Assembly (NCBI GenBank): GCA_963663405.2
Contig: CAXXSM010000003.1
Coordinates: forward strand, 1-42,116
From: a bacterium
GTDB taxonomy: Bacteria; Hinthialibacterota; Hinthialibacteria; Hinthialibacterales; Hinthialibacteraceae
Length of the DNA: 42,116 nucleotides
Direction of reading: 5' to 3'
In this document: piece after piece, positions 22,879 through 41,407 of the stretch
Layout of the letters: every line of letters starts with the position of its first letter
Position numbering within the stretch: position 1 is the first letter of the stretch
Translations under genes and position numbers: made by a program
Notes under the pieces: model-generated
Told to the model about the DNA's origin: nothing
The model's input: only the letters and a program-made list of their open reading frames with translations
Databases searched by the model: none

Positions 22879-25215
22879 TCAACCGGCGGCTAATTCCTGT
22901 GTTAGATAATCACTGATTTGCTGCGATTCAGAAAGCGCGACCTCCATTGCGGTAAATCGTTGTCGCAGTGTCGCTTCCATCGCTGCCGCCCGGTCTTCGT
23001 ATCGTTCGATCTGTTCGTTAAGACTATCGATCCGGTCCTGGATGCCATCCGTAGTCACATCCAAAATCCCCGTGTTATAGGCGGTGAAGGTATCAAGGGT
23101 ATCCGATAAATAATCTGAAAAACCGATATCCGCGGCTGTAAAGATATTCTTGACAAGTTCGGGATTCTCATTCAAGGCGGCTTGGAAATCGGTGCTGTTA
23201 TAGGTCAGAGTTCCCGCCGTTGAAAGGGAGATCCCGATCGAGGCCAAACTGCTGGCGCCGCCTTCGCTGATGATGCTGCCCGCGATTTGATCTCCATAGA
23301 TGGCGCTTTTTATCCCTAAATCTTTCGCCGTCGTTCCACTTCCATATTCCTCGATCTTGAATTGACCTGTGCCGCCGGATTCATCGATAATGTTGATTGA
23401 ACGCCCGCCCGCGTTGATTTCCGCGCGTACGCTGACATCAGTATTATAATTAATCTCATCCAGAACGTCTTGAATGGTCTCGACATTGGAAAGGTCTATC
23501 GTCGCGGATACTCCAGACCGGTCGGTGATGACAATACTTCCAAAATCGATCCCGGCGCCATCGTTCAACTCTTCCACTTTAACGGATGGCATCGTGAGAA
23601 TTGAGCGGCTGATCGTACTGGATAAGGCGCTTTCCAATCGCCGGATTGTGGAATTCCCAAATAAAATCCCGTTTTCTTCTCCCTCGGGATCGTAATAGGT
23701 TTGATCGGCGATTAGTTCCGCCAGACTATTAAAGGCCGACACAAAATCTTCGACTACAGATGTGACTTGTGAGAGGTCTTCTTCAATCGATATATTGACA
23801 ACCGAACTGCTCTCATTGACCAGAGCCAATGAAACTCCATCTCTCAAATCGGTGATGAGATTCGTTTGACGGTTGACAGTCACTCCGTTGTATTTAAATT
23901 GTGAATTTTCCCCTTGCTGATCCACATTTTTAAACAGATTATCGACAATTCCAAGGGTTTTTAAAACATTATCTGGATCGCTGGTGAAAAGGGGAACGCC
24001 GGAATCACTACTGATTTCCAGGCGGGATGCGCCTCCCACGGTGATGACCTGGGCGGAGATATCAGAACTCCCGGCGGAGGCGGTGACGGCGTCGTTGATC
24101 GCGTCGGCGATATCTTCCAGCGAATCCGAATCAAGATCGACAGTCACATCAATCGAAAAACTGGAATCCCCATTGGTTAATTGGAAGGTGGATTCGCTGG
24201 TCTCTCCTAATCCCATTAAATCGCCAACGGAAAGCACGGATGAAGAGAGTTCCTCACTCTGAATGCCGGATAATACTCCAAGATTCGTCAAGACGGAATC
24301 CGGATCATCAAACTGGGTGGGAATGCCTGTATCGCTGGTGATGAGCAACCGTTCATCGCCACTTGCGTCTGATGTATCGACATAGGCGTGGATGTTGGTG
24401 CCAGCGGCGGCGGCGTTGATCTCATCCCGGATGTCATATAAGGTTTTCCCAGCGCCTGCGAGTGTGACATCCACACTATATTGTCCCCCCGCGTCGTAAA
24501 TCGTGAATGTTTCCCCCCCCGCGTCATAATCGAAGGTTTGTCCAACCGTAAAGAGATCTCCGATCGCGCCATAGCTGTTCGCGTTAACGGTATGATCATA
24601 ATCGACATCCGATGTGATCAATCCCAACGACTCAAGTACCCCATCCGTTCCAACTTCCCGCATTTCGAGTTGATTGACGCCCGCGCTGGCGGCGCTGACG
24701 AGTAGTTTATATTGGTTGGATGAGATCTGCAGAACGGATGCGTTCGCGTTTGTGCTGGAACCGTTGATTTTTGAGGCGATGGAAGTGAGGGTATCTGTTT
24801 CCGTGACCGATAAGAGCTGACCATTGACGATAAATTCCCCGGTTAGCCCTAATTCATCGGTTGGATTAGAATAGATATCCGAAGAGATTTGTTCGACTTG
24901 CGCCAGATTCTCTACCTGTATGGTGAAACTTCCAGTTGAAGCGGAACTGCTGGCGGAAACGGTTACAATGCTTTCATCGGAGCTAGCCGCTTGCTTTCCG
25001 TTAAACAAGCCAACGGAACCAAGGCTTTCTCCCGCGACTCCTAGTCCCAAGACACTCGCGTTGACCGCTTGAAACGATGCGAGTTCGAGAGTATAGGTTT
25101 CAATCCGGCTTTCAAGCTGCTTAACGGGCGCGCGGGCCTGTATATCCAGAATTGACTCGATCAATTCCGTTGTATTAAATCCGGATATTAAACCTTCAAT
25201 CGCGAAATTCGTCAT
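22879..25215 (-). CDS. fliD: Flagellar filament cap protein FliD (long form, 778 aa)
   Basis: GLISGFNTTELIESIL N-terminus, VENLAQ, NGVTVNRQTN.ITD..DGVSLAL, FVSAFN, G.LFGNS, L.SIGIS, C-terminal LRQRFTAME. Confidence 0.92.
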   Translation of the reverse strand: MTNFAIEGLISGFNTTELIESILDIQARAPVKQLESRIETYTLELASFQAVNASVLGLGVAGESLGSVGLFNGKQAASSDESIVTVSASSSASTGSFTIQVENLAQVEQISSDIYSNPTDELGLTGEFIVNGQLLSVTETDTLTSIASKINGSSTNANASVLQISSNQYKLLVSAASAGVNQLEMREVGTDGVLESLGLITSDVDYDHTVNANSYGAIGDLFTVGQTFDYDAGGETFTIYDAGGQYSVDVTLAGAGKTLYDIRDEINAAAAGTNIHAYVDTSDASGDERLLITSDTGIPTQFDDPDSVLTNLGVLSGIQSEELSSSVLSVGDLMGLGETSESTFQLTNGDSSFSIDVTVDLDSDSLEDIADAINDAVTASAGSSDISAQVITVGGASRLEISSDSGVPLFTSDPDNVLKTLGIVDNLFKNVDQQGENSQFKYNGVTVNRQTNLITDLRDGVSLALVNESSSVVNISIEEDLSQVTSVVEDFVSAFNSLAELIADQTYYDPEGEENGILFGNSTIRRLESALSSTISRSILTMPSVKVEELNDGAGIDFGSIVITDRSGVSATIDLSNVETIQDVLDEINYNTDVSVRAEINAGGRSINIIDESGGTGQFKIEEYGSGTTAKDLGIKSAIYGDQIAGSIISEGGASSLASIGISLSTAGTLTYNSTDFQAALNENPELVKNIFTAADIGFSDYLSDTLDTFTAYNTGILDVTTDGIQDRIDSLNEQIERYEDRAAAMEATLRQRFTAMEVALSESQQISDYLTQELAAG

Positions 25216-25861: not shown

Positions 25862-26290
25862 TTATGCTTTGTTGTCATACATCAGGCCCATCGTCTTTTG
25901 AATTTTTTCGGTGATTTTACGTACCTCTTCCGGAGGAACTTCCCGAATCACTTCTTGGGTTTCTTTATCAATGATCATGATCGATGTTTCTTCCGAATCA
26001 TGATCGACGGAAATATGCAACCGGCGCGAGGACGCTTCTGGTTCAACCTCCGTTTCTGAATCAACCGGATCGCTAGACCTGCTGTTAGTATTCTTCCAAC
26101 CGGTCACTTCTTGATTTTCTCGTCGAGTGGTCTTCTCCTCGAGGATCATAGACACAACCGTATTGGGCACTGGGGCGTCTGCCTTCTCAATGGATGAAGG
26201 CGCGTGATCCTTTGCTTCCGGAACCCGTTCATCCGTTAAGACGACGCCCGCCGCTCGTGGACTATGAGAAGCAATTGCGCCGACTTGCAT
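25862..26290 (-). CDS. flaG: Flagellar protein FlaG
   Basis: C-terminal RRLHISVD...IMIIDKETQEVIREVPPEEV..I...I....GLMYDNKA. Lies between flagellin and fliD. Confidence 0.88.
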   Translation of the reverse strand: MQVGAIASHSPRAAGVVLTDERVPEAKDHAPSSIEKADAPVPNTVVSMILEEKTTRRENQEVTGWKNTNSRSSDPVDSETEVEPEASSRRLHISVDHDSEETSIMIIDKETQEVIREVPPEEVRKITEKIQKTMGLMYDNKA

Positions 26291-26430: not shown

Positions 26431-29028
26431 TTATCCCAGAAGGGCTAAGAATCCCTGACTTGTGAAGTTCGACTGGGCCAGCACGGAGAGACCCGATTGC
26501 AACAAGACTTGGTTTGTCGCATACTCGGTGGACTCTTTCGCAATATCCACATCGCGGATTCTCGATTCGGAAGCCGTCAAGTTTTCCGAAGAAACGCTCA
26601 TATTGGAGATTGCGGCTTCGAGGCGGTTCGTCGCCGCGCCGAGAATGGACCGTGTTTTATTGACCTGCGCTAAGGCTTCATCAATAATACGGATACTTTC
26701 ATTCGCGCCGTTCAGAGTCGTGACATCGATATCCGCGACCGTGCGGCCGCTGCCCCGTCCAAAACCAAGGTTTTCAGAAGTCAGATCACCGATCGCCGCG
26801 GTGAAGGATTGTTCCGAAAAGGCGCCAACGTGGAAATTCATCGAAGTATTCACGGTGGAGATAATAATCGTCCGGCCTGTATCGACGAGTCCGTCTGTCC
26901 GCTGCGTAACATCGAGAACTCCATCGAAGTCCACCGTGACAAACCGGGCAACCCCTCGATTACCGCCACTATTTCCATCAATGAAGACTACGTCTTGATT
27001 CCCGTTTTGGAAGGTGACTTTTTCACCCCCGTTCAACTGACCGACGAATTCACTCGGTGTGGCTTCCAGTTTGTCCACGCCTTTCGCAAAACCGCTCCCG
27101 ACCCGGAAGGTGACTTTCGGTTGAGCAACTCCTTGGATAGTTGATTCTTCACCAACCAGTGTGACCATTTGACCCGCTTCCGCCCGCACTTCTTCCCCAC
27201 CGGCGATGCGGAATGTAGCCGACTCGGCGAAACCTTCCCGAGTTAATACACCATCGTCTTGGAAAGTGTATTTGTTCGTGCTTGACGCCGCGCTGTTAAA
27301 TGTCAGCGTAAACTGCATTTCTGAATCGGAACGGCCGATATCGTCGACCAATTGCAAGACTCCGGACGAAGTAAAAGTAAAGAGCGCGTCTTCAAAGCGG
27401 GATTGGACACCATCCGCAAGGCCAATCGTATTATTCGTCACCGTGTAATCCCGCGTGCGGTAATTCAGTTCTTGAATCAAGCCGGAGATGGAACGGAAAC
27501 TGAAATCGTTTAGATTCGTGTCCACTTCGTTCTGGTTCCCGGCGGTGTCTGTATTGTCAAAGGTAAACGCCGCTTCGAACGTTGTCCCATCCGCGTTTGT
27601 GCCGGCTAGCGTGATTGTATCGCCGCTTTGCAGAGTCGTGCCACCCGTGTAAATCCCTTCCACAAACGCTCCGTTAATGACCAAGGATTTTGTGCCTGTC
27701 CCCGTAATGGATGCCGTGCGGCTCATAATAGCGCCATTGCCATCGTAGAACGTAATGGTGCTTTCCATCTTTTTCGCCTGGGCGGCTTGGACGTTGTAGA
27801 CTTCAATGTCAAATTGACCGACGCCGAAGGTGGAGCCGGTAATGGAGGAAATGGTGTTTCCAATTTGACCGGCTCCGGAGAGAGCCGAATCTATCCCGAT
27901 CGCGCCTGACCGGGTTACGCCATTGGACTGACTTACAAAATTACTGTCCCGGAGCAGGGTGATATTGATGCTGGATTCATTGGTATAGTTCCCATCATTG
28001 AAGAACAACAAGCGGCCTATATTAGCTCCGGCGCCCAGAGAGACCGTTGTCCGGAACGCGGTGGGGACACTGGCGGTTGTTGTCACGCCAAAGAGAGCCT
28101 TTTCCGCTTGATCGATCGCCCGGTTGATTGTGCCAATCAGTGAAGTCGCCGCATCCGTCGCGGCGGTATCTGTCGCTACACCCATCACTGTCTGACCGCT
28201 CAAACTCAACGTTCCATTGAACTTTGTCACTCCATCAGACAGAACTCCTTCAAACGTGAAGACGTCGTAGACGCCGCTTCCCGCATGAGCGGAAATCGAG
28301 ACGCCATTAAAGAAAATACCGCTCACACTATCAGTCGCGTCCGCCCCACTGCCTCCAAACAATTGGGCGTCGGAGAAATGGGCCATACTCACTGCGATGT
28401 CCGTCTGATTGCGGATTCCTGTGTTGAGGGTTTGAATTTCCCCCACTCCGTCCCCTGCGATGATCTGAGTGGTTCCCGTATTTGTTCGGACAATATTCAG
28501 AAAGGATTTTCCGCTGGCGAGCGTACTGGCGACTGGTGAGGCGTCGATGCTTAAACCGATCTCTTCCTGGCCATCGATCGTATTGGTTGTGATGGAAAAA
28601 TCACCATTCAACAGGAAATTGCTGGTGAACTGGGTGGTATTGGCGATTCGAGTGATTTCGTCAATACTCTGGAACACCTCATCCTGCAAAGCGCGGCGGG
28701 CGTTGAGATCGTTGACCGCCGTATTCGCCGCCTGGATCGAGAGCTGACGGATCCGGTTCAAACGGGTTGTGGTTTCTTCCAAGGCGCCTTCCGCGACATT
28801 AATCAAGTTGATGCCGCTGGAAGCGTTATCAACGGCTTGATCTAATCCTTGGACCTGGGTGCGAAGATTGTTTGCTACGCTCAATCCGGCGGCGTCATCT
28901 CCTGCACGGTTGATGCGAAGTCCAGACGATAAGCGTTCGATGCTCTTTGAAAGAGAGCGTTGGGTGTTATTTAAATTCCGGTTGGCGTTCAGAGACGCAA
29001 TATTGTTGACAACTCTTGAAATACTCAT
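26431..29028 (-). CDS. fliC: Flagellin 1 (865 aa, very large central domain)
   Basis: MSISRVVNNIASL...SIERLSSGLRINRAGDDAAGL and C-terminal RSILGA.TNRLE...SESRIRDVDIAKE...QVLLQSGLSVLAQSN. ATG at 29028 after AAGGAGG. Confidence 0.95.
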   Translation of the reverse strand: MSISRVVNNIASLNANRNLNNTQRSLSKSIERLSSGLRINRAGDDAAGLSVANNLRTQVQGLDQAVDNASSGINLINVAEGALEETTTRLNRIRQLSIQAANTAVNDLNARRALQDEVFQSIDEITRIANTTQFTSNFLLNGDFSITTNTIDGQEEIGLSIDASPVASTLASGKSFLNIVRTNTGTTQIIAGDGVGEIQTLNTGIRNQTDIAVSMAHFSDAQLFGGSGADATDSVSGIFFNGVSISAHAGSGVYDVFTFEGVLSDGVTKFNGTLSLSGQTVMGVATDTAATDAATSLIGTINRAIDQAEKALFGVTTTASVPTAFRTTVSLGAGANIGRLLFFNDGNYTNESSINITLLRDSNFVSQSNGVTRSGAIGIDSALSGAGQIGNTISSITGSTFGVGQFDIEVYNVQAAQAKKMESTITFYDGNGAIMSRTASITGTGTKSLVINGAFVEGIYTGGTTLQSGDTITLAGTNADGTTFEAAFTFDNTDTAGNQNEVDTNLNDFSFRSISGLIQELNYRTRDYTVTNNTIGLADGVQSRFEDALFTFTSSGVLQLVDDIGRSDSEMQFTLTFNSAASSTNKYTFQDDGVLTREGFAESATFRIAGGEEVRAEAGQMVTLVGEESTIQGVAQPKVTFRVGSGFAKGVDKLEATPSEFVGQLNGGEKVTFQNGNQDVVFIDGNSGGNRGVARFVTVDFDGVLDVTQRTDGLVDTGRTIIISTVNTSMNFHVGAFSEQSFTAAIGDLTSENLGFGRGSGRTVADIDVTTLNGANESIRIIDEALAQVNKTRSILGAATNRLEAAISNMSVSSENLTASESRIRDVDIAKESTEYATNQVLLQSGLSVLAQSNFTSQGFLALLG

Positions 29029-29049
29029 TCTTCTTCCTCCTTGAAAAAG

Positions 29050-29073
29050 CGATTCGGCTTCCCTGCCGAATCG
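29050..29073 (-). promoter_or_regulatory. CsrA-type hairpin in the flagellin 1 leader
   Basis: CGATTCGGC-AGGGAA-GCCGAATCG just upstream of the SD. Confidence 0.7.
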
Positions 29074-29521
29074 TGTGACCATGAGGGTGCGATTTTGGTC
29101 ACAACAGGTTCATTTTGGGTGCGATGGTTGAATACTTTTTTCCACTCGAAACAGTTTAATCTCTAGTACAGCGGATGCGGCCGCTTTTTTATAGAGACTT
29201 GTTTCGGTTGGAAGCGGGGAGTATTCACCCCGAGTTGTCCATATAATTCCTTCGTTTCACAGGTTGTCAGCCTCGGGCGCCACTCCGGCGCGGAAGGATT
29301 TCTATGTTGTCTTCGTAACTTTCCTCTCTCCTTTCCTCACTCTCCTTATTAATAAATCAAACCGTTATTGATTTAAATTCTGGTATCTGCATCGTCCTTC
29401 ATGTACATTCGACTTTGCGGAAATCCAACATTACATGAAAATATTTTGTGAGACAAAATTTCTAGTTGACTTTGATAGAATCTATTACATATTTGTTGAA
29501 CATGGAAATAGACATTAGGTA

Positions 29522-29549
29522 ATATCGTCCACTTTCCCGATTTTCTTGA
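29522..29549 (-). promoter_or_regulatory. Candidate sigma28 promoter for flagellin 1
   Basis: Minus strand TCAA-N16-GACGATAT; spacer is 1 nt longer than consensus. Confidence 0.5.
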
Positions 29550-29894: not shown

Positions 29895-31787
29895 TTGAAT
29901 TCGGATGGATATGAACCTATTTATCCTGGATTAGACACGTCTCTCTACGAATTAAATCTAGAGTACTTGCGCCGGTATTATTCGGATTTATACGAAACCA
30001 TCGTGAACCGCCGATACGAGCCGATGTATCGCATCCGGTTGGGAGGCGATCCGCAAGCCCCTGGCTGTCAAATCCAACCCCGGACATCCACCGCGCCCAG
30101 CCGGGGAGACCGGGGATTGATTCATGGCGCCTCTCCTTGGAAAGAAGCGCAACATACAGCGGAGCAGATTCCGTGGCGGCAGGCGGGATTGATTTTTGTC
30201 CTCAATACAGGTCTCGGTTATACAGCCCGTCTTCTTTCCCAACAGATTTATTTATATAGATTGAATAAAAATCAACTCATCCGTCTTGTTTTTGTTGAAG
30301 AAGACATCGAACTGTTTCGGAGGAGTCTTTATCTGCACAATTGGACGAGATTGTTTGCGCAATCGGAGAACCTATTTATTGCCGGTGTTCCACTCTCGAA
30401 AACGCTTCATCATCCCGTTCTCAACTCCTATCCACCGGTATATCAAGAAGCGGCGTTGGTGATTCCCGGAGGTCATCTATCCCCACGAGAAACGAAGGAA
30501 ATCACTCTCCTTACACAAGAAGCGCAAAATCGGAAAGAATGCGCCGGTCAGTATATCCAAAATGCCCTTCATCTTCTTCATAACCGACGTGAGTTTTTCC
30601 GTCCCGTCAAGCGCCCCAAGCGGATTCTCTTTCTATCCCATTACATGATCCCCATGCAAAATATGATAATGAACATTCTCAAAACGTGGGGTTATGAATG
30701 TAAATTGATCCCCCTGCTGAATGATCCCAAAGCCAAAGAGCATGCATTCGGATTCTATCGTAAATGGGCCTGGTTGGATATGCTGAATGATTTCAAACCG
30801 GACGCTCTTTTTATGCTGACGGACACGGCGGACGATTTGACAGACGGCAGCGATCTTTCCACAATCCCAATCCCCAAAATCGTTTGGTTTTTGGACGATC
30901 CACTCCGTCAAATCCGGTTCCGCGACCGGCGATTTACAGAACGGAAGAATACGTTTCTGTTTTGTTATGATAAAACCCATCTGGATAACCTGCGCCGCCT
31001 TGGATTCCGACATGTGTTTTATCAGCCGTTCGGCGCGTCGTTTGGACCGGATTTCCAAGGATTGATTGATGGAGAGACGCATCCTGGCGTTACGTACGCC
31101 GGTTCAATTCTGGGCGAAGTCGAAATCCTTAACCGCTGGCTTTTTGCCCCTTACATGCCGGAATTGATTCCGATTCTTCAGCAGGCGGGTGAAGAAATCG
31201 CCGCAGGAAAATGGCGGTCCGAACATGAATGGATTGAGGAAAATGGTATCCCAGATGAAAGACTGGATCGTACGATCTATGTTCGTTACTTGCAGGATTA
31301 CATTACAAATAAAAAACGAATCTCGATCCTCTCAGCTGCGGTGGAATTCAATTTACGGACCTATGGGAGTGAAATGTTTAAAAGTGAATTGATACCGGAA
31401 AGACTTAGGAAATGTTACCAGGAAAAAAGACTTCACTACACCGTCGAACTACCTGGTATTTATGCGCACAGCGCAGTCAATTTAAATATCAATCACTGCC
31501 AAAGCAGGACGGGAGTACAGGCGCGGATCTATGATGCGCTCTCAGTGGGTGGATTTCTACTCACCGATTCCAATCCTTCGATCGAAGAGGAATTCGATAT
31601 CGGAAAGGAGTTGATCTGTTATCATTCTCCTGATGAATTGAAGGATCTGTTGCGATTTTATTTAAACCACGAATCCGAACGCAGGAAAATCGCTCAAGCG
31701 GGTCAACGGGTAGTATTGGAAAAATATACATTGGAGAAACGGCTCAAACAGATTTTTCAAAAAGTGGAAGAACTTGTGGAAGAGTAG
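29895..31787 (+). CDS. Glycosyltransferase (CgeB/DUF3880 + Glyco_trans_1_2-like) with a Maf-like N-terminal region; probable flagellin modification
   Basis: TGLGY...VFVEEDIELF N-terminal region, WFLDDP, FCYD, YAHSAVNLNI, ARIYDALSVGGFLLTD, EEFDIGKELICY, ERRKIAQAGQRVVLEKYTLEKRL. Confidence 0.8.
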   Translation: MNSDGYEPIYPGLDTSLYELNLEYLRRYYSDLYETIVNRRYEPMYRIRLGGDPQAPGCQIQPRTSTAPSRGDRGLIHGASPWKEAQHTAEQIPWRQAGLIFVLNTGLGYTARLLSQQIYLYRLNKNQLIRLVFVEEDIELFRRSLYLHNWTRLFAQSENLFIAGVPLSKTLHHPVLNSYPPVYQEAALVIPGGHLSPRETKEITLLTQEAQNRKECAGQYIQNALHLLHNRREFFRPVKRPKRILFLSHYMIPMQNMIMNILKTWGYECKLIPLLNDPKAKEHAFGFYRKWAWLDMLNDFKPDALFMLTDTADDLTDGSDLSTIPIPKIVWFLDDPLRQIRFRDRRFTERKNTFLFCYDKTHLDNLRRLGFRHVFYQPFGASFGPDFQGLIDGETHPGVTYAGSILGEVEILNRWLFAPYMPELIPILQQAGEEIAAGKWRSEHEWIEENGIPDERLDRTIYVRYLQDYITNKKRISILSAAVEFNLRTYGSEMFKSELIPERLRKCYQEKRLHYTVELPGIYAHSAVNLNINHCQSRTGVQARIYDALSVGGFLLTDSNPSIEEEFDIGKELICYHSPDELKDLLRFYLNHESERRKIAQAGQRVVLEKYTLEKRLKQIFQKVEELVEE

Positions 31788-31814: not shown

Positions 31815-33242
31815 TTACAAGAACGAACTTAAATGCCCGACGACAATTTTTCCCGCCTCGACGATCGAATCACACAACCGCCGCGCTTCCTCTTCACTGA
31901 AATACTTTTCGAAGTATTCGGTGTTGGTCATATAGACCATTTTATCGTTGTAATGATACCGTTCGGCATCGTAAAAGGTGCCCAAATTTTGCAGGACGCC
32001 TCGCAAGAGGAGTTCATAAAGGGCGAAATCTTGTTTAAAGACTTCAAAAATCCGATTCATCGTTACCGGCCAATCCTTCGCGAGCGTATTCCGCAGCGCC
32101 GACACTTCTTCTACAAAGAGAAGGGCCGCCCCGCATACATCACGAATCCGACTCAGTTCCCAAGTGTTTTGGCGGATTTGGGTTCGGGTGCGTTCGAGTA
32201 GATCGTTATTATTAAGCTGCGCCTGGTTTTGGTATTGTTCCAGGAATTTGTTTACCAACATCCAATCATAATTGCGTTGAAAGCGGTGGAGCGCGTAACT
32301 CCAGACTTCATTCGGCACGGAACCAACCGCTTCAACCTTTGGATTGGGTTCGATTTTTTTCCCCACGCATCGAATCCGGCCGCATAATTCCGCTGACGCG
32401 TTCATGAATCCTGCTTTGAATAAAGTGAAAATGAGGGAATGGAAAGGGAACGCGCATCGCTCTTCACTCTTTAGGCAGAGCCGGTTAACGCGGGGATTCA
32501 CCGCTGGATTTTCCACTTCGACATAAATCACGCCTTCGTCTTTGATGTGAGGATGAATTTTATTCAATACCTCCAACGGTTGGGTGGTTTGTCCCAGCGC
32601 GTCAAAACAAAAGACAATATCAAACTGGTCATCCTCTTCGAGTCCGGCGTTCATTACCGGTTTTTCCGATTGGAAGAAAGGATCGTCCATAGGAAGAGAA
32701 GACGTGTCGTCCGGTGGAGATTCCGCAGTGGTGTTTTCTGGTGAAGCGTCTTCCGTTTTCTCTGTATCAAAGAATGGATTCTCAACGAGGAACGGATCGC
32801 TGACTTTTTCCGATACGCCGGTAGGGGATTCCTGTGTTTGTGTTTCCTTTGTGTCACTTTCCTGAAGGAGCCGGTCAAGCGAAATTGTTTTGACTGCCCA
32901 GCCTTCTTCTTTCAGTTGGGATTCAAAGCGTTTTTTCTTCGAGTAAATCTCCAGCGCGCGCCCAGGTTCTTTCGCGTAACCGGTGAATTGCCGCAGCCAC
33001 TCCAACGGTTCTTGAGAAGGAGGCGGCGGTTCGGCTCCCGTCTCCCATCCATCCGAAAAGAGATCGCCCTGGGACGATCGATCGACAATGGGATTTTGGA
33101 AGATCAACGCGCATTCGCGGCAGATTGAAAAATGGACCCGCGTATCCATCGCCCACTCACGCATCAGTTGATCTTCCTTTTCCCAGTGCCAAAACGATTG
33201 ATGATTGGCGCTCTTACAGACCGGACATTGAACATCCGTCAT
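31815..33242 (-). CDS. Zn-ribbon + class I SAM-methyltransferase-like protein (degenerate)
   Basis: CPVC...CREC.LIFQNP, FDIVFCFDAL...PLEVL.KIH..IK.EGVIYVEVEN. The glycine-rich motif I is replaced by ALEIYSKKKRF. SD GAGGAG before ATG 33242. Confidence 0.65.
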   Translation of the reverse strand: MTDVQCPVCKSANHQSFWHWEKEDQLMREWAMDTRVHFSICRECALIFQNPIVDRSSQGDLFSDGWETGAEPPPPSQEPLEWLRQFTGYAKEPGRALEIYSKKKRFESQLKEEGWAVKTISLDRLLQESDTKETQTQESPTGVSEKVSDPFLVENPFFDTEKTEDASPENTTAESPPDDTSSLPMDDPFFQSEKPVMNAGLEEDDQFDIVFCFDALGQTTQPLEVLNKIHPHIKDEGVIYVEVENPAVNPRVNRLCLKSEERCAFPFHSLIFTLFKAGFMNASAELCGRIRCVGKKIEPNPKVEAVGSVPNEVWSYALHRFQRNYDWMLVNKFLEQYQNQAQLNNNDLLERTRTQIRQNTWELSRIRDVCGAALLFVEEVSALRNTLAKDWPVTMNRIFEVFKQDFALYELLLRGVLQNLGTFYDAERYHYNDKMVYMTNTEYFEKYFSEEEARRLCDSIVEAGKIVVGHLSSFL

Positions 33243-33437
33243 GATATTCTCCTCATAATTCAATGTAGTTTTACCGTATCACGAATTCGCTCCCCAGACG
33301 AGTCATGACTATCCATCGCGGGAATCAATTGGATGGCCATGGCGCCGGAGTGGACGTCTTCGCCAGTAGAGGGTGGATTGGAACCACCCTCATGTATAGA
33401 TCCGCGGAAGATCCTTCCACTTTCGTTCGCTGATCCA

Positions 33438-36002
33438 CTACCCGAGCAGCGAGAGGAAGCTTTGGGGAAGGAAATTCGCCTGCGCCAGGACCGAAACACC
33501 CGCTTGAAGAAGCACTTGGCTGCTTGCGTAGGCGCTTGTTTCTTTTGCAAAGTCCGCGTCCCGCAGTCGCGATTCCGCCGCAAGAAGATTTTCAGACGAA
33601 ACGCTCAGATTGGCGATTGTGCCTTCCATCCGATTGGTCGCCGCGCCCAGCAGTGAGCGTGTGCGATTGATCTGATCCAACGCTTTGTCAACAATCTCCA
33701 ACGCTTCATTGGCGCCGGAAAGGGTGGTCACATTGATCGTCTCGACTGTGCGACCTTCGTTGGCGAAGCCAAGATACTCCGCAGTCAGATTGCCGATGCT
33801 GGTCCGGAAATACTCATCGGAAAAAGCGCCGATTTGGAAGTTGAGAGATGAATTGATTGTCGAGATTAAGAGTGTTACGCCTGGATCCGGTTCATCCGTC
33901 GCTGATTTAGTGATATCTAATATCGTGTCGAAATCCACTGTCAAAATCCGCGCTACACCACTCGCAAACGTCTCGTCGTCGATAAATTCCACATCCTGCG
34001 CGCCATTTTGAAATGTGACCGCTGGGCCTCCATTCAAGCGTCCGATAAATTCCTGGGCTTGCGTATCGAGGATATCCTTGCCGACTTTTAAATTTGATCC
34101 AACACGGAGAGTCACCCGTTCAGGCACTTCTCCTTCCTTGGTCGCTTCTTGTCCATTGAGCGTGATAACCTCTCCCGCCTTGGCTCGAACCGCCTCGCCT
34201 CCATTGATGCTGATGGACGCCGATTCGGCGAAGCCTTCTTTGATCAGATCCGCGTCATCATTGATTGTGTATGCCGGAGTCGCCGAGGAATTGCTGTCGT
34301 TGAATGTGAACGTGAAGTCCAATTGGGAATCATCCCGCCCGAGATCATCGATTAATTGAAGTTTGCCATCCGCCGATAGTGTGAAGAGCGCGTTATCGAA
34401 ACGGGTTTTCTTACCATCCAACGAGTTGATCGTATAATCCCGTGTCCGGTAATTGAGTTCCGCGATCAATCCAGACAGGCTGGCGAATTGGAAATCATTC
34501 AAATCGGTGTCTGTGGAAGGTGTGTCACTGAATGTATAAACGCTCTCAAACGTCGCGCCATCTACATCCGTTCCCCGTAAGGAGAGGGTATCCCCATTCG
34601 AGATCGAAACACCACCGGTGTAAATTCCATCCACAAAGGTTCCGTTGAGAGACAAGCCCCGTGTCGTGCTCACAAGAGAGGCGGTTCGTGAGAGCGTGGC
34701 GCCTGTGCCGTCGCGGAAAATGATGGTGCTTTCCAGTGTCCGGTTCTGGGCGGCTTTAACATCATTGACTGTGATTTCAAATTCCCCGGTCGTGAACGTC
34801 GAGCCTGTGATCGCAGTAATCGAATTCCCGATCTGTCCGCCTCCGGAGAGGATGGAATTCCTGCCCAAGACCTCGGAGCGTGTCACTCCAGCCGCTTGAG
34901 ACACCACATTCCCCCCCCGGATCATCGAGACGTTGATCTCCGATTGGTTAATGTAGTTCCCCTCATTGTAGAGAAGCAGCCGGCCTAAGTTGGCGCCCGT
35001 CCCAATCGTGACTGTCGTTCGGAACGAAGTCGGCACACTGGCGGTGGTTGTCACTCCAAAGAGAGCCTTTTCCGCGTTGTCGATCGCGCGGTTGATGGAT
35101 CCCACGAGAGACGCCGCCGCGTCGGACGCCACCGTGTCGGTGGAGACGCCAAACTGGGCCGCTCCACTGAGGCTGAATGTGCCGAAAAACTTCGTCACTC
35201 CATCGGCTAAATAGCCATCAAACTGAAAGACATCATACATACTGTTCCGCGCCGCGATGGAAACGCCATTAAAATACTCGCCATCGAATCCATCGCCGGC
35301 GACAGAGCCGCGTCCACCGAATGAACGCGCGTCGGAAAAATGAGCGACGCTGACGGCGATGTCGGTCGCGTCATTCGTTCCGAGGTGCATCGTGCGCGAA
35401 ACTCCATTTGAATCCAGCCCAGGGATCAGCTGGGCGAAGCCGTTTTCCGTCCGGATAATGTTAAGATAGCTGACGCCGGACTCCAACGTGCTCGAACTGG
35501 GGCCGCTGTCGATGCTAATGCCATAATTCATGTTGTAATCTTGCCCTGCTTTAATCTCCGAGACAACGCTGTAGTCTCCGTTGAGAAGCAGGTTGGCGCT
35601 GTATTTCGTCGTATTGGCGATTCGAGTGATCTCGTCAATGGACTGAAACACTTCATCTTGCAGCGCCTGCCGCGCCAGAAGATCGTTGACGCCGGTGTTC
35701 GCGGCCTGGATCGCCAGCACCCGGATCCGGTCGAGCCGGTTCACCATCTCTTCCATCGCGCCTTCGGCGATGTTGACCAGGTTGATTCCATCCTGGGCGT
35801 TCATGACGGCTCGATCGAGTCCCCGGACCTGTGAGCGGATGCGCGTGGCGATCGTCAGGCCAGCGGCGTCATCACCGGCGTTATTGATCCGCAAACCGGA
35901 CGAGAGCCGTTCGATCGATTGTTGGAGATCCCGGCTCGTCGCATCGAGGTTCCGATTTGCGGTAATGGCGGCGATGTTGTTGTTAATCCTGGTGATACTC
36001 AT
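33438..36002 (-). CDS. fliC: Flagellin 2 (854 aa)
   Basis: Conserved flagellin N- and C-termini. Central domain is collinear with flagellin 1. Confidence 0.95.
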   Translation of the reverse strand: MSITRINNNIAAITANRNLDATSRDLQQSIERLSSGLRINNAGDDAAGLTIATRIRSQVRGLDRAVMNAQDGINLVNIAEGAMEEMVNRLDRIRVLAIQAANTGVNDLLARQALQDEVFQSIDEITRIANTTKYSANLLLNGDYSVVSEIKAGQDYNMNYGISIDSGPSSSTLESGVSYLNIIRTENGFAQLIPGLDSNGVSRTMHLGTNDATDIAVSVAHFSDARSFGGRGSVAGDGFDGEYFNGVSIAARNSMYDVFQFDGYLADGVTKFFGTFSLSGAAQFGVSTDTVASDAAASLVGSINRAIDNAEKALFGVTTTASVPTSFRTTVTIGTGANLGRLLLYNEGNYINQSEINVSMIRGGNVVSQAAGVTRSEVLGRNSILSGGGQIGNSITAITGSTFTTGEFEITVNDVKAAQNRTLESTIIFRDGTGATLSRTASLVSTTRGLSLNGTFVDGIYTGGVSISNGDTLSLRGTDVDGATFESVYTFSDTPSTDTDLNDFQFASLSGLIAELNYRTRDYTINSLDGKKTRFDNALFTLSADGKLQLIDDLGRDDSQLDFTFTFNDSNSSATPAYTINDDADLIKEGFAESASISINGGEAVRAKAGEVITLNGQEATKEGEVPERVTLRVGSNLKVGKDILDTQAQEFIGRLNGGPAVTFQNGAQDVEFIDDETFASGVARILTVDFDTILDITKSATDEPDPGVTLLISTINSSLNFQIGAFSDEYFRTSIGNLTAEYLGFANEGRTVETINVTTLSGANEALEIVDKALDQINRTRSLLGAATNRMEGTIANLSVSSENLLAAESRLRDADFAKETSAYASSQVLLQAGVSVLAQANFLPQSFLSLLG

Positions 36003-36027
36003 GATATTCCTCCGTGAATTGGGCCTT

Positions 36028-36045
36028 TCCGGCGTCCATGCCGGA
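36028..36045 (-). promoter_or_regulatory. CsrA-type hairpin in the flagellin 2 leader
   Basis: TCCGGC-ATGGAC-GCCGGA. The SD itself reads ACGGAGGA. Confidence 0.7.
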
Positions 36046-36123
36046 TCGATTTTGGGTTACAGACTTCTATTTTGAAACGGCGAGCCACGCCAGAATTATG
36101 CAGTTGGGCGCTGTTCGTTTGGC

Positions 36124-36204
36124 AAACAAAAATAAGGCAACGCGCCGGGACGTCGAGTGAATCGCCCCGGCGCACATTGCCAAACAACTGACGTGACTGT
36201 GCGC
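36124..36204 (-). promoter_or_regulatory. Putative transcription attenuator (terminator/antiterminator) in the flagellin 2 leader
   Basis: Terminator GGCAA..GCGCCGGG...CCCGGCGC.TTGCC-TTATTTTTGTTT. Upstream GCGCACA can pair with TGTGCGC in its 5' arm. Confidence 0.55.
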
Positions 36205-36697
36205 ATTATTCTTGAACAACGTAACGGTAAAAGCCAATCACTAGAAATTGCCCCTGGACAGAGCTATTCTTAGACAGCCTATCCTGTGTATGGGCGTGTT
36301 TCGGCTTGCGGCCCAGCGTAAGTAAATGCAAAGCTGCCGGTGGGCAGTGTTCACTGGTTGCAGGGCCTTAATTCCCGCTGCGTCTTATATACAATCTTGC
36401 CTTCTCTCCGCGGTTTTTCGGGGGCGCTGTAGGAGACCGCGGGGAACGCAAAGACTGCTGTACTTACAGTGACCCTTGAATACGTCACATGAAGTCCCAG
36501 TTTCACCAGAAGGTGGCCATTATGGTCCCTCCCACCGATCCCAGGCAGTCAACCTGGTTCATTCTCTATTTTTAAACAGAGATGAAGGCGGGTTATGTAG
36601 TCGTCATAGACGGTACATTCTCCTTTTCCATACTCGAAGCGGTGACCATACGAAGCGCGTATAGCGAGGCTCGAGCCGGTTTGTTATAGATAAACCT

Positions 36698-36724
36698 TTA
36701 TCGTTACCCCTGTCGTGGGGTATA
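36698..36724 (-). promoter_or_regulatory. Candidate sigma28 promoter about 690 nt upstream of flagellin 2
   Basis: Minus strand TATA-N15-AACGATAA. Confidence 0.45.
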
Positions 36725-36938
36725 TAAGTCAATTCTCAAATAAGGAGTTTCCTCATACAGAAACCTTTCTCTATGCTTGTTCTAATTCATCTTTTGGCAA
36801 TCTAAACGCTCTTATATCTCATATCTCACCAATTCTTCGTCTGGATAAGTCAGATCGAAGCGGCGTTACTTATAAATCCGCTTTCATTGTTCCCACCCGG
36901 CGGATGGCGCCGCTGGGGAATGGACGTATATGGTGTAT

Positions 36939-37448
36939 TCACTTTTTACATACACATGCCTCGATCGCATCGCCGCAACATTCCTGTTCCGGCATCGCAG
37001 GACTGCGAGAATCCACTCCTGTCCATTCGATTGTTTCCGGTTCGAGATCCAGTGGACGCAACACCACAGTCTCCCCGTCTTGTTCTCCTGTAATGAATTT
37101 TGAGAGTTGTGGGAAGGAGGGTTTCCAAGAACCCAATCCTGAAAGCCAGCCTTGCCGCAGATGTTCTGCGAATCCTTTTAACCACAGGATAAGGCGCTGC
37201 TTTCGGGATTGAGATTCCGTGGATTCCCTCCCTCCGCTTCTCTCCGTTTCGCCTGGTTTCGATCTTCGCTCCCATTGGAGCCGGGGAACCTCCACTCCAT
37301 CCCACGGACGGAGGAAGAAGAAAGTTGTCCGCCGGATGGCATAGTGGAGTTTTGGCCGCACCCATCTATTCCCTCGGCGCCACCGTTCCGGGACCGATCG
37401 AACGCCGATCGGCCGGTAGGAACTGATTGAGTCACGAATCGAATCCAT
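36939..37448 (-). CDS. Hypothetical protein (frame uncertain)
   Basis: Strong SD AAGGAG 6 nt before ATG 37448. No recognisable domain, and other frames are open in parallel, so indels are possible. Confidence 0.4.
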   Translation of the reverse strand: MDSIRDSISSYRPIGVRSVPERWRRGNRWVRPKLHYAIRRTTFFFLRPWDGVEVPRLQWERRSKPGETERSGGRESTESQSRKQRLILWLKGFAEHLRQGWLSGLGSWKPSFPQLSKFITGEQDGETVVLRPLDLEPETIEWTGVDSRSPAMPEQECCGDAIEACVCKK

Positions 37449-38302
37449 ACTTGTCTCCTTTGCCGGTACACATTCACGTGAAATCCAAACAGCCGCACCC
37501 GCTGGATTCCCGTTAAGCGGGACACCGGGCGGAAAGACGATACGTTTGACGAAACAAATTTCTCTTTATAAAACAAAGCCTGCGTCTAAACCGTTTTGAT
37601 GTCATAGCGAATGACCTTGGTTCTCTTTCAATCATGAATCGGCGCTTGTTGGCAAGGCCGTCATCCATTCAACGATTTCTCCGAAGGCGGCGCCTTTATT
37701 CGGAAAATCATGGAGTGGATGAGGTTCCAATCACCTCACTCGATTCCGTTGAAATCTCGAACGATCCCTTGTCCTTTACTGGAGACGGCAGTCCCCGTGT
37801 GGACGTTTCTCGACGCCTTTCTCTCTTCTATACATCGATCCTATAGAGGAAGAGAATACGAGGCCTAACGCTTGGAAGAGAGGATTCATCAAACCATCCA
37901 TCTTCCATCACTCGTTCTCCCGCCCATCACTATGGGCAAAGTGAACTCGTGATAAACGTCCCGTTCTCAAGGCAATCGTTTTTAATTTTTTTCCGCTCTG
38001 CGGCTATTGAACTTCCTTCGTTAGCCGGCGGCGCCATTTCAATCTTTAATCTCTCTTTATGCCTCTCCTTTCTGTTTTGTACTGGAACGCGATGGTCCAG
38101 TGTTCACTAAGGATGAAGGAGCCGATCGTTTTGGGCCTTCATCAATCCCTTTTGAAGCGCGCGGGAATGTTCGAATCCCAGCCTTACATCGCTTCAACGC
38201 TTTCGCCGAAATACGATTCGGAAAACCATTGAAGAGATGGCGTAACGCTTGATAAGGCTTGTTTACACTGTCTTTGTTCTATTGCCTCCGCTGGTTTCGA
38301 GC

Positions 38303-38338
38303 CGGGGCAGGGAGGCGGAGCTATGGCTCCCTGCCCCG
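38303..38338 (-). terminator. GC-rich 12-bp hairpin after flagellin 3
   Basis: CGGGGCAGGGAG...CTCCCTGCCCCG, with a weak U-tract. Confidence 0.55.
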
Positions 38339-38386
38339 CGTTCTTTATCTGCTAAGGTAGTTGAAACTGACCGGTAATCCGTTTGT

Positions 38387-40948
38387 TTATCCGAGTAATG
38401 AAAGCAGCCCCTGCGGTAGGAAATTCGCCTGCGCAAGGACCGACGTGCCCGCCTGGAACAAGATCTGATTGGATGTGAAGGCCGATACTTCCGAGGCGAT
38501 ATCCACATCGCTGATCCGGGATTCCGACGCGGAAAGGTTTTCAGAACTGACCGATAGGCTGCTGATTGTTGTCTCCATCCGGTTGGTGAACGCGCCCAAG
38601 GTGGACCGGGTCCGGCTGACTTGATCGAGCGCTTTATCCACAATTTCGAGCGCCTGGTTGACGCCGGAAATTGTCGTGACATTGATGACAGATACAGTTT
38701 TCCCGCTGCCGCGTCCATAACCGAGATTGTCGCCACTTAAATCAGGGATATTGATTCGTAAATCCTGTCCTTTAAACGGTCCAATCTGGAAATTGAGAGA
38801 ATTGTTGATCGTAGACAGGAGAATCGCTCGTCCTGTGTTGGCGGATCCATCTGTGGGCGGACCGGTAATGTCGATTACGCTGTCGAAATTCAGCAATATG
38901 GTCTCCGCCACACCTTCAACCTCGCCGCTTTCAAAGAAAACGTTTTGGTCGCCGTTTTGGAAGGTGACCAGAGGCCCTCCATTCAAACTGCCGACGAATT
39001 CCTGCGCTTTGACTTCCAGTGTATCCGAGCCCTGGGTAAAGATGGAATCTTCCAACGAAGTCCGGGAACCGCCACCGAACCGCATGGTCAATTGTGGTGT
39101 GGATTCACCCAGCTTGGTCGGCTCCGTTCCGTAGAGAGTCACCGTCTCCCCAGCCTCTACGCGGATTCGTTCTCCCCCGTCTACGACGATCGTGGCGACT
39201 TCCGGATTTCCATCAATCGCGATTTGTGATCGATCCGAAAGAGTGCGCGTCGTGTTATTATCTTCCACTTTCATAAAGAAACTGGATTCAGAATAATTCG
39301 CGGTGTCGTCGATCAGTTGAAGCGTGCCCGCGCCGGTCAGTGTCAACACTGCGTCTTCAAACGCGCTCTGTCCGTCTGGGCCTTGGACGCCTTGGGAGCG
39401 GTCGCGGTAATTCAATTCCCGGATCAATCCTTCGATCGTTGCGAACTGCCCGTCTCCCAGGTCGGTGTCCGTGTTGACGCTATTAGAGATGGTAAAAACA
39501 TTTTGGAATGTGGAGCCGTCGGCGTTGGTCCCCTCGAAAGTGAACACATCATTGGCTTCAAACAGAATCCCGCTTTCCGCCGTGGTGAAATCCGAATTGA
39601 CAAACGTTCCATTCAGGATCACATTGCCCGCTAATTTCAAACTGGCGGTCCGGGAAAGAATGGCGCCCTGCAGATCCGTAAAGACAAGAGTGCCGTCCAT
39701 TTTCCGGCGGTTTGGAGGCAGGACATCAGAAACTTCGATCTGAAAATTCCCTGTGTCGAACGTGGATCCAGTAATCGCCTGCCACCGTGTTCCCATACTG
39801 TCCCCCCACGTCTTGTCCTTTGACGTAATCGCGCGTGGAGACTGTCGATCGTTAAGGTCTCCCACGCTGTTTGTAACGTTAAAACTATTTGGAATGAGAG
39901 GGAGCGTCAGTGATATTCGAAAAACTGGTCTTGGTATCTCCCTCCTCTTTGGCGCTGAAAAAACCGAATTCGTCCCTCCGAGGTATCGCCGACACCGACT
40001 GCGGCGATGCTGACGTGTGTCTGCACGAAACTGCCGGGGATGTTGAGAGAAACACCCCAAACAAAGCCACCTCGCGTTGTCGATCGCCGCCTGAACCTGT
40101 TCGATCAAATCCCGCAATGTATGAGCGCCCATCGAATCGGACACACTGATGGCGCCCGCGAACGGCGTTACACCATCCGACAGTACGCCTTGAAACGCGA
40201 TCATATCGCTGGCGCCGATCGAGACGCCATCGAATGTGAGGGCGTTTTAAGGTGTCATCCATACCCGCCGCCCGGCCCGCCGCGTCCCGAACAAACTGCC
40301 CCGTCGTGACGGCGATATCGGTCGAATCTTTGATTCCCGTGGCGAATATGCTTGGCCGTCATCTTTCTTATATGGAATAAGGTTTTCATATCCTTTCATT
40401 GGTTCGAATAAGATTGAGTATTGATGTGCCGGCGCGGAGACTGCTCGCGTTTGGATCGCTGGAAACTTGCACGCCGATATCATCCTGCCCCCCTGTGACG
40501 CCTGTCACGGTGGCGTTATCGCCAGTAAAAAGAAGGCGCGAACTGAATCGCGCAGTGGAAGCGATGCGGTTGACTTCGTCGACTTGTTGAAAGACCTCAT
40601 CTTGGATCGCTTGGATCGAAGCGGCGTCGTTGGTTCCTGTATTCCGGCGGCGATGGCCAATTCCCGGATCCGTTGGAGACTAGAGACCAGCGAATCCAAA
40701 GACGCTTCAGACGTGTTGGCCATGCTGATGCCGTTTTCCGCGTTGAGGATCGCTTGATTGGTGCCTGCGAATCTGCGTTCGCAGCCGTTCGCGAATGGTC
40801 AGACCCGCAGCGTCATCGCCCGCCCGATTATACGCAGTCCAGAGGACAATCGTTCAATATTCTTGTTTAGTCTTGTGCTGATCCGGTTGAGATTGCGCGA
40901 CGACGCCGATATGGAGGCGATATTATTGTTGATACGCGTAATGCTCAT
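38387..40948 (-). pseudogene. fliC: Flagellin 3 (about 850 aa), 5' third broken by several frameshifts, likely assembly errors
   Basis: ATG 40948 reads MSITRINNNIASI...NIERLSSGLRI, with further fragments in other frames (ANTSEASLD..VSSLQRIRELAI). The C-terminal part is intact (RSTLGAFTNRME...QILFQAGTSVLAQANFLPQGLLSLLG). Confidence 0.88.
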
Positions 40949-41027: not shown

Positions 41028-41169
41028 AGTAGAGCGTGAGCGTTCGCCGTATCTTGATAGGGGTCAGTCTCGTGGCTCGTTCCAGAGCTAAGGCGATTTA
41101 TGTTAATCGTAACCCGTTCTTCTTCTGGAGCGGCTCGCGTTTGGAGACCATGTGAAGCGCTCTCCAGGA

Positions 41170-41195: not shown

Positions 41196-41407
41196 GCCTT
41201 CGCGGCTTTTCACATTCAACCGATATACCCTTCCTGATTTCCTCACCCTGCAATCATTCAATCTTCATTCTTCAATCACTAGGAATCTTCCTTTTTGGAT
41301 ATCGGCCTTTGGGGAATTGACTTTATACTATTTTTACATAAACCATTCCTTCTACATGTTCACTGTCTACCATGAATCAATAGAAGCAATGAACTGACGG
41401 AGAAACA

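Follow-up and report, generated by a model that had tools for sequence, protein, structure and literature searches.

The flagellin locus and the leader of flagellin 2

The stretch of DNA analyzed here, which we call the window, comprises 42,116 nucleotides (nt) of contig CAXXSM010000003.1 (GenBank assembly GCA_963663405.2) from an uncultured bacterium of the family Hinthialibacteraceae, and the element in question is the RNA leader of one of its flagellin genes. A flagellar cluster on the minus strand fills this region of the window, with fliD, flaG, flagellin 1, flagellin 2, and a third flagellin (Table 1). The initial annotation of this DNA had placed ahead of flagellin 2 a structured leader of about 690 nt with a terminator/antiterminator switch, and had taken it for either an attenuator with an unrecognized aptamer or a large non-coding RNA that selects among flagellin paralogues. 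We find that positions 36003 to about 36627 of the minus strand are the 5' untranslated leader of flagellin 2, a multi-domain RNA that is kept throughout one family, and that this leader is a real and conserved structured RNA that has not been described before; in the literature, paper supplements not covered, no description of such a leader in this lineage was found. The leader is non-coding and structured as had been noted; its first conserved position is at about 36627 and not near 36690.

The genome that holds the window is an incomplete assembly of 8.4 Mb that is 82% complete. It was compared within a family set of 20 genomes, itself included, and with an outgroup of 15 genomes from other families of the class; the family genomes have 3-7 flagellin genes each, and 40 further flagellin leaders were retrieved from them for the comparison of paralogues. 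In its own genome the leader DNA occurs once. By BLASTN, pieces of it were found in 7 of the 19 other family genomes and in none of 21 more distant genomes, and these pieces form three collinear blocks, in every case immediately ahead of the orthologous flagellin. R1, a covariance model built on the hairpin block, matched 16 of the 20 family genomes, that of the window being one of them, with one match each, and none of the 15 genomes of other families. A second model, of the 5' block (R2), matched all 16 R1 loci, 15 of them at E ≤1.5e-5 and one at 0.083, and a flagellin start is located downstream of the leader in every one of the 16. In the four family genomes without an R1 match a recognizable, more divergent leader is present. 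Conservation in relatives, on which the initial annotation had made its leader depend, is therefore found, with the parts of the leader recurring in the same order in 16 of 20 family genomes.

When the 638-nt leader (36003-36640) was folded, its energy was -224.5 kcal/mol compared to -195.8 ± 4.9 kcal/mol for shuffled sequences (z-score, -5.87), and none of 20 shuffles was as low. The outer pairing TTTGGCAA/TTGCCAAA, which had been listed earlier, is found in the minimum-energy fold of the whole leader, and the earlier statement that there is no credible open reading frame (ORF) agrees with our data in that all ORFs are of 62 amino acids (aa) or less. When these ORFs were compared by tblastn to the 15 related leaders, short matches were obtained over a conserved hairpin in all three overlapping frames, and since they are spread over three frames they reflect nucleotide conservation and not protein conservation. 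The repeat GCAG(T)CTTTGCRTT that had been pointed out is visible in the window sequence but none was noticed in the relatives, where no count was made. As to known RNA families, the leader matches none in Rfam: there are no matches in the window at the gathering score, and at E ≤10 none fall inside the leader, the three weak matches obtained all being at 38276-38339.

One contig assembled from a metatranscriptome spans 36349-36563 with 7 differences in 215 nt (about 97% identity), which is a weak hint that the leader is transcribed. Such contigs give neither ends nor strand and DNA carry-over is possible. Apart from this contig and another one at 37150-37324, the two RNA libraries gave none on the rest of 33400-38500, and nothing is concluded from that.

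The 5' module and the three-way junction

The leader opens with a conserved 5' module (Table 1), and the same module precedes the junction in the leaders of the flagellin-1 type paralogue. It could be part of a promoter, a 5' stabilizer, or a further GGA site; when sigma70, sigma54, and extracytoplasmic function (ECF)-type promoters were looked for around it by eye, nothing consistent was seen. Further upstream is the sigma28-like site of the initial annotation, which is indeed present and agrees with the consensus used for sigma28 (FliA), that is TAAA, 15 nt, and GCCGATAA, at 9 of 12 positions, but in the 15 relatives there is no comparable site at a comparable place. It is plausible as a candidate promoter, on the strength of its sequence, in the window's genome only. 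A canonical TAAA-N15-GCCGATAT is found ahead of the third flagellin at 41299-41325 and a weaker CAAG-N15-GACGATAT ahead of flagellin 1 at 29522-29548, each of them 100-210 nt upstream of an ACAUAR element. A degenerate junction-like element was also seen ahead of the third flagellin, at about 41092-41103.

Directly downstream of the 5' module the leader forms a three-way junction. Its P1 is CCCGCC/GGUGGG, its P2 is a hairpin of variable, free sequence (36558-36586), and its P3 (36541-36557) is CCAGG-UUGACUG-CCUGG in the window and CCAGG-YUGACNN-CCUGG across leaders. In a MAFFT alignment P1 and P3 together are 90.9% paired compared to 30-55% for slid controls, compensatory changes are present in 6 of 11 pairs, and the covariation score was reached by none of 500 shuffles. 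Compensatory changes across genera retain these stems as well as hairpin P6, which is described below. The loop motif with ACAUA upstream of it occurs twice in the window's genome, in the leaders of flagellin 2 and flagellin 1. When 34 leaders of these two paralogue types (16 of the flagellin-2 type and 18 of the flagellin-1 type that hold ACAUAR) were examined by script, a P3 stem with at least 4 of 5 pairs was found in 29, and 13 of the 18 flagellin-1 type leaders passed; there were 12 different P3 stems. P1 was taken in this script as the best of 35 offsets, so that its count is flattered. The junction may be a protein-binding or stability element. A mini-ORF after the junction, MATFW, was looked at by eye and rejected; it is not conserved, with a stop in place of the start in one relative and different lengths in others. 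A scan for the exact pattern of the junction gave 47 stretches in a genome collection and 53 in a metagenome collection; most of these 100 were chance matches, and only 7 passed both models. Six of the seven are genome records with identical scores, which look like family genomes already in the set, and one is a metagenome contig (L099). These stretches gave nothing new and therefore the alignment could not be enlarged.

In all 16 leaders the parts of the 5' module are at a constant distance (CGTY, 10 nt, ACATAA), as might be expected where a protein binds DNA, and one might argue from this that the conserved blocks function at the level of DNA, with flagellar transcription factors using them as promoter, operator, or enhancer sites, rather than as RNA. 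This is very improbable given that compensatory changes preserve the stems, as do G-U pairs, which would be A-C mismatches on the other strand, and that the hairpin stems change their sequence completely while the loops are fixed.

Hairpin P6 and the question of transcription attenuation

Between the junction and P6 there are two further hairpins. The stem that had been noted at about 36395-36455 is real and is placed in Table 1; its loop displays CUACAGCRCCC. The AGCRCCC motif is found in 15 of 16 leaders, and in the relatives differing stems surround the same motif, as seen by eye and without a count. P5, the other hairpin, is well kept in most relatives as a stem CAACC/GGUUG with the loop AAUCGCGCC and is degenerate in the window, where its counterpart was placed by two alignments.

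Hairpin P6, which had been noted as a terminator hairpin, is present in 16 of 16 leaders with 13-27 pairs and energies of -28 to -48 kcal/mol. It is 90.4% paired compared to 33-49% for slid controls, with compensatory changes in 8 of 13 pairs, and in the relatives its stem continues downward with unrelated sequences. In the window, P6 and the U-rich tract that follows it pass a simple terminator scan, and both parts of the proposed terminator are thus present there, but a T-run of at least 5 is found in 1 of 16 leaders, which is that of the window. Within 40 nt after the upper stem of P6, T-runs reach a length of 5 in the window and of 4 in one relative, and the other 14 relatives have none longer than 3. 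Similarly, the proposed antiterminator GCGCACA/UGUGCGC, whose second partner is in the 5' arm of P6, is a perfect 7-nt match in the window but has no counterpart in the relatives, which form P5 at that place, and it is not in the minimum-energy folds. With a U-tract in the window only and an alternative pairing that the relatives do not keep, there is no support for a conserved terminator/antiterminator riboswitch, and the U-tract that makes P6 terminator-like is a peculiarity of the window's genome. What is kept in P6 is its loop, which is invariant and is something that terminators do not need; it may be a protein-binding or stability element.

In the model of the initial annotation a ligand-sensing aptamer chooses between this antiterminator and the P6 terminator, and flagellin 2 is under transcription attenuation. 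It has for it that in the window the GC-rich P6 is followed by UUAUUUUUGUUU, that the perfect alternative pairing lies 24 nt upstream, and that the three-way junction is aptamer-like, with conserved unpaired bases and covarying stems. However, apart from the U-run and the pairing, which are specific to the window, the junction is about 350 nt upstream of P6 and nothing links it to an expression platform, it is also present in flagellin-1 type leaders, which are without P6, no Rfam riboswitch was matched, and the invariant loop of P6 is not accounted for by a terminator. As a conserved switch the attenuator with an unrecognized aptamer was therefore not upheld, and we consider this model to be quite unlikely.

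CsrA-type sites at the 3' end of the leader

At the 3' end of the leader there are two GGA motifs that are 21-26 nt apart in 16 of 16 leaders. An A(N)GGA-loop hairpin is located at -32 to -37 in all 16, with stems that differ among genomes, and an A(N)GGAGGA is located over the Shine-Dalgarno sequence at -11, again in all 16. In the window's genome FliW (C132:103334-103690) and CsrA (C132:103888-104046) are encoded adjacent to each other, and both are above the Pfam cut-offs. From these sequences we infer fairly strongly that the last 45 nt of the leader are a CsrA operator, and CsrA-type translational control at the 3' end appears to be the most secure function of the leader. Because one ANGGA is in a hairpin loop and the second covers the Shine-Dalgarno sequence, a CsrA dimer on the two sites would block ribosome binding, and FliW, freed on export of flagellin, would relieve this block by the same mechanism as for hag and flaA.

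According to the available text of PMC4894983, flaA of Campylobacter jejuni has two loops with ANGGA, of which the second covers the ribosome-binding site (RBS), the optimal spacing of sites for a CsrA dimer is 18 nt and that in flaA is 21 nt, and hag of Bacillus subtilis is likewise repressed by CsrA, FliW being the antagonist for hag and flaA by way of a partner switch. The leader described here resembles these CsrA-FliW leaders in its two A(N)GGA motifs, one in a loop and the other over the Shine-Dalgarno sequence, in the distance between them, which is near the optimum and would suit a single CsrA dimer, and in the adjacency of fliW and csrA. It differs in size, since the flaA leader is 45 nt by the same text (PMC4894983) whereas this one is about 625 nt, with an additional stretch of about 580 nt of conserved structure that precedes the candidate CsrA sites.

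A second structured RNA upstream of the leader

Upstream of the leader, on the same strand and between two of the flagellin paralogues, we found a second structured RNA, which we call X (Table 1). The X block has 77-87% nucleotide identity in 12 of 15 relatives. A covariance model of it (R3) matched 19 of the 20 family genomes, with one match each, and none of the 15 genomes of other families, and the single family genome without a match has merely a 2-kb contig there. X is made up of the hairpins H1 and H2 and the long hairpin H3, and a closing stem, GGGAA/UUCCC, encloses H2 and H3. Its stems are 84.8% paired compared to 36-49% when slid, with compensatory changes in 21 of 31 pairs, which was reached by none of 500 shuffles. 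Because many of the pairs in X are G-U, its strand is fixed as that of the flagellin genes. The RNA-library contig at 37150-37324 covers part of X; neither a promoter nor a terminator of its own was identified for it. The suggestion of a large non-coding RNA that selects among paralogues fits better than the attenuator, but it fits the separate RNA X and not the leader for which it had been made.

X was also considered as an ordinary protein gene because of the 169-aa ORF (36939-37448) that overlaps it, which it probably is not: aa similarity does not go beyond about residue 56 of this ORF, and 3 of 13 relatives have an interrupted frame. The compensatory changes in the stems of X are non-synonymous on one side. 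There is, however, a conserved Shine-Dalgarno sequence with an ATG about 40 nt before H1, and X may be translated, dual-function, or part of a longer RNA. Further upstream on the minus strand there is a small basic ORF (37513-37668), whose counterparts in the relatives end in ...R.LAYA-stop and are about 33 aa long, and directly after it a further hairpin with a GGUGCG(A) loop at about 37488-37508. Another block common to several relatives was seen by eye upstream of the small ORF, at about 37640-37700 of the minus strand, consisting of UUUUCCGAA, a hairpin, and UUCGGAGAAAnCGUUGAAU, which could represent either a promoter region or another RNA element.

With X in the same orientation, the region from the junction to P6 could be regarded as an independent small RNA, or as the 3' end of a transcript that comes from X or from earlier and stops at P6, in which case the promoter of flagellin 2 would be within 36003-36124. 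P6 is terminator-like in the window, the minus strand between X and the leader gave no intrinsic terminator, and there are RNA-library contigs over parts of both, all of which would agree with such a transcript. But the relatives are without the U-tract, no promoter-like site was found on the minus strand within 35800-38600, the segment after P6 has conserved RNA features (ACAGCRCCC and the CsrA-type hairpin) rather than promoter-like blocks, and all 16 leaders agree in the order of the blocks and in their spacing from the start codon. A separate RNA that ends at P6 is for these reasons unlikely.

Pairing between X and the flagellin leaders

The loop of H3 is perfectly complementary to AAGGAGGAAGAAGAAUG, which is the start region of flagellin-1 type genes. 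When X was compared to the flagellin-1 type leaders of its own genome, the longest Watson-Crick run was 10-15 nt in 16 of 19 comparisons and usually 13, and the three short runs (6-7 nt) were with second flagellin-1 type copies that have a different start region. As a control, the RBSs of 16 other paralogues gave runs of 5-9 nt with X. Compensatory changes were seen in genome G016, where GGAGGAAGAAAAA goes with UUUUUCUUCCUCC, and in G002 and G018, where AUGGAGGAAGAAAAG goes with CUUUUCUUCCUCCAU or a near variant. Moreover, UCGCACCC is found in 18 of 22 flagellin-1 type leaders compared to none of 19 leaders of other types, 21 of its 29 sites are in hairpin loops whose stems vary from genome to genome, and the docking loop UUCGCACC is the complement of the GGUGCGA loops of X. 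The picture that these complementary sequences suggest is that X and the flagellin-1 type leaders would be a kissing-loop antisense pair, in which the loop hairpins of the leaders would bind the GGUGCGA loops of X and the third loop of X would bind the RBS.

In the flagellin-2 leaders, P5 is built like the docking hairpins of the flagellin-1 type leaders, with the loop AAUCGCGCC in place of AUUCGCACC, and because of this loop it could pair with X through six Watson-Crick pairs and one G-U. For the GCRCCC motifs of the leader six pairs with X are possible. Judged by sequence, P5 and the motif-displaying hairpin resemble the UUCGCACC loop hairpins in the leaders of the sister paralogue. We regard a real contact between X and the flagellin 2 leader as possible but no more, in view of the degenerate P5 of the window and because no compensatory changes were observed.

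The 13-mer GGAGGAAGAAGAA, which is complementary to the third loop of X, occurs at four other places in genome G000: C21:25032, C66:2401, C91:50848, and C118:116519. The copy on C118 is a possible RBS of a 54-aa ORF, that on C91 is inside a sigma-factor-like ORF, and those on C21 and C66 have no clear context.

The leader as a translational-control RNA

Flagellin is among the costliest proteins of a motile cell, and its post-transcriptional control is known mainly from short CsrA-bound leaders and a few small RNAs (sRNAs) in model organisms. Our preferred reading, which we hold with rather more confidence than doubt, is that the leader of flagellin 2 is a multi-domain translational-control leader, with a CsrA operator and upstream docking hairpins, that is part of an RNA network among flagellin paralogues. 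Within it, it is more weakly inferred that the upstream hairpins serve trans-acting partners for docking and do not make up an attenuator that senses a ligand. How the network might work can be put forward tentatively, and we hold the following to be less likely than not: X, using two or three GGUGCGA loops and an anti-Shine-Dalgarno loop, would dock on the hairpins and RBS of the sister flagellin and more weakly on P5 and the GCRCCC motifs of the flagellin 2 leader, and together with CsrA-FliW it would decide which flagellin is translated. X may in addition switch termination in the window's genome, because a docking motif would there have turned into an antiterminator arm (GCGCACA) beside a new U-tract.

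Several observations weigh against the translational-control reading. The counts overstate independence because the 20 genomes are related and mostly incomplete assemblies, and the sole RNA evidence for the leader is one assembled contig that could be DNA carry-over. Since the sigma28-like site is not conserved, the leader could start at a greater distance from the gene, or a single transcript could comprise both X and the leader. Partners for the conserved single-stranded parts were looked for and rejected: a complement of at least 7 nt to ACAGCRCCC, as a cis partner helix, is present in only 3 of 16 leaders, and CGAGUG or GAGUGA, with which the P6 loop might pair, in no more than 6 of the 22 flagellin-1 type leaders, where they are scattered. 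The flagellin-2 RBSs give runs of only 6-9 nt with X, without compensation in G002 and G018, and the pairing of P5 with X needs a G-U pair and involves a hairpin that has decayed in the window. Finally, a local and recently gained attenuator in the window's genome is possible, as P6 passes the terminator scan there and the 7-nt alternative pairing is present.

The pairing proposed for X is comparable to the loop-loop (kissing) antisense control of the plasmid systems CopA/CopT and RNAI/RNAII. The likeness is in the complementary loops of 7-8 nt, and in the X system the stems covary on both partners. The difference is that X and its target are encoded about 8 kb apart and not on opposite strands of one locus, and that the target is a flagellin mRNA. 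In Clostridioides difficile a class I riboswitch for cyclic di-GMP reportedly lies ahead of flgB, and riboswitch-controlled flagellar leaders of this kind share with the present one a long structured leader at a flagellar gene and, in the window's genome, a hairpin with a U-tract. Here, in contrast, there is no Rfam riboswitch match, the terminator is not conserved, and no ligand is implied by the gene context. Base-pairing sRNAs derived from untranslated regions are described for the flagellar regulon of Escherichia coli, MotR, FliX, and others, in the available text of PMC10578931, and an sRNA pair for that of C. jejuni in the available text of PMC11187230. X is like these in that it sits inside a flagellin cluster and is complementary to a flagellin RBS. 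As far as those texts describe them, X differs in having three structured loops (two of the kissing type and one anti-Shine-Dalgarno), in having targets with matching loop hairpins, and in being preceded by a conserved Shine-Dalgarno sequence and ATG whose ORF overlaps it.

In this uncultured lineage, with 3-7 giant flagellin genes per genome, a candidate CsrA operator ends a leader of about 600 nt that has further conserved domains, and the RNA network that surrounds this leader is probably where the more novel biology is to be found. If all this is borne out, there would be new RNA families for Rfam and a testable model of how a choice among flagellin paralogues is made through RNA-RNA contacts. 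The case of P6 also shows that a hairpin which passes convincingly for a terminator in a single genome can have come about by local chance, superimposed on a conserved element with a different role.

Features of the flagellar cluster

Table 1. Positions in the window of the RNA elements and genes discussed
Feature	Positions	Strand	Remarks
Sigma28-like site, TATA-N15-AACGATAA	36698-36724	minus	exact string; 9/12 consensus positions
Conserved 5' module	36593-36627	minus	AAGGAG, then CGTY, ~10 nt, then ACAUAA; 16/16 leaders
Three-way junction	36531-36592	minus	minimum-energy fold, z-score -4.0
Hairpin showing CUACAGCGCCCC (36421-36432) in its loop	36396-36453	minus	-27.9 kcal/mol; z-score -4.1; 0/200 shuffles
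Degenerate counterpart of P5	36185-36204	minus	two alignments; holds GCGCACA at 36198-36204
Long hairpin P6	36136-36181	minus	GC-rich; invariant loop UCACUCGA (36153-36162)
U-rich tract UUAUUUUUGUUU (DNA TTATTTTTGTTT)	36124-36135	minus	directly after P6; window's genome only
Second copy of single-stranded motif ACAGCGCCC (ACAGCRCCC)	36104-36114	minus	string located
Upstream CsrA-type site, hairpin CCGGC-AUGGAC-GCCGG	36029-36044	minus	ANGGA in loop
Second ANGGA, CACGGAGGAAUAUC-AUG	36000-36016	minus	overlaps Shine-Dalgarno sequence, then flagellin 2 start codon
Structured RNA X	37271-37422	minus	probably extends to ~37150; ~650 nt upstream of the leader's junction
X, hairpin H1	37388-37416	minus	loop GGUGCGA; covarying stem
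X, hairpin H2	37349-37366	minus	loop GGGUGCGG (GGUGCGA); covarying stem
X, long hairpin H3	37290-37349	minus	loop UUCUUCUUCCUCC
Flagellin 1 leader	29026-29307	minus	likely main target of X
Flagellin 1 leader, three-way junction	29248-29307	minus	
Flagellin 1 leader, two UCGCACCC sites	29117-29124, 29085-29092	minus	
Flagellin 1 leader, GGA hairpin	29052-29071	minus	
Flagellin 1 leader, extended RBS AAGGAGGAAGAAGAAUG	29026-29042	minus	
fliD	22879-25215	minus	
flaG	25862-26290	minus	
Flagellin 1	26431-29082 (ORF)	minus	longest ORF begins at 29082; likely true start 29028
Flagellin 2	33438-36002	minus	854 aa
Third flagellin	38387-40947	minus	broken by several frameshifts and stops

The third flagellin is either a pseudogene or carries assembly indels. 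In one relative (G005, locus L141) the flagellin behind the leader is a fragment only and its GGA hairpin is degenerate, and the next flagellin downstream retains the junction, the GCACCC sites, and the extended RBS. The flagellin ORFs in the cluster are very large (778-883 aa), and between the flagellin paralogues there are a glycosyltransferase-like gene (29895-31787, plus strand) and a methyltransferase-like gene (31815-33263, minus strand). Their size and these adjoining genes suggest that the flagellins are giant and modified.

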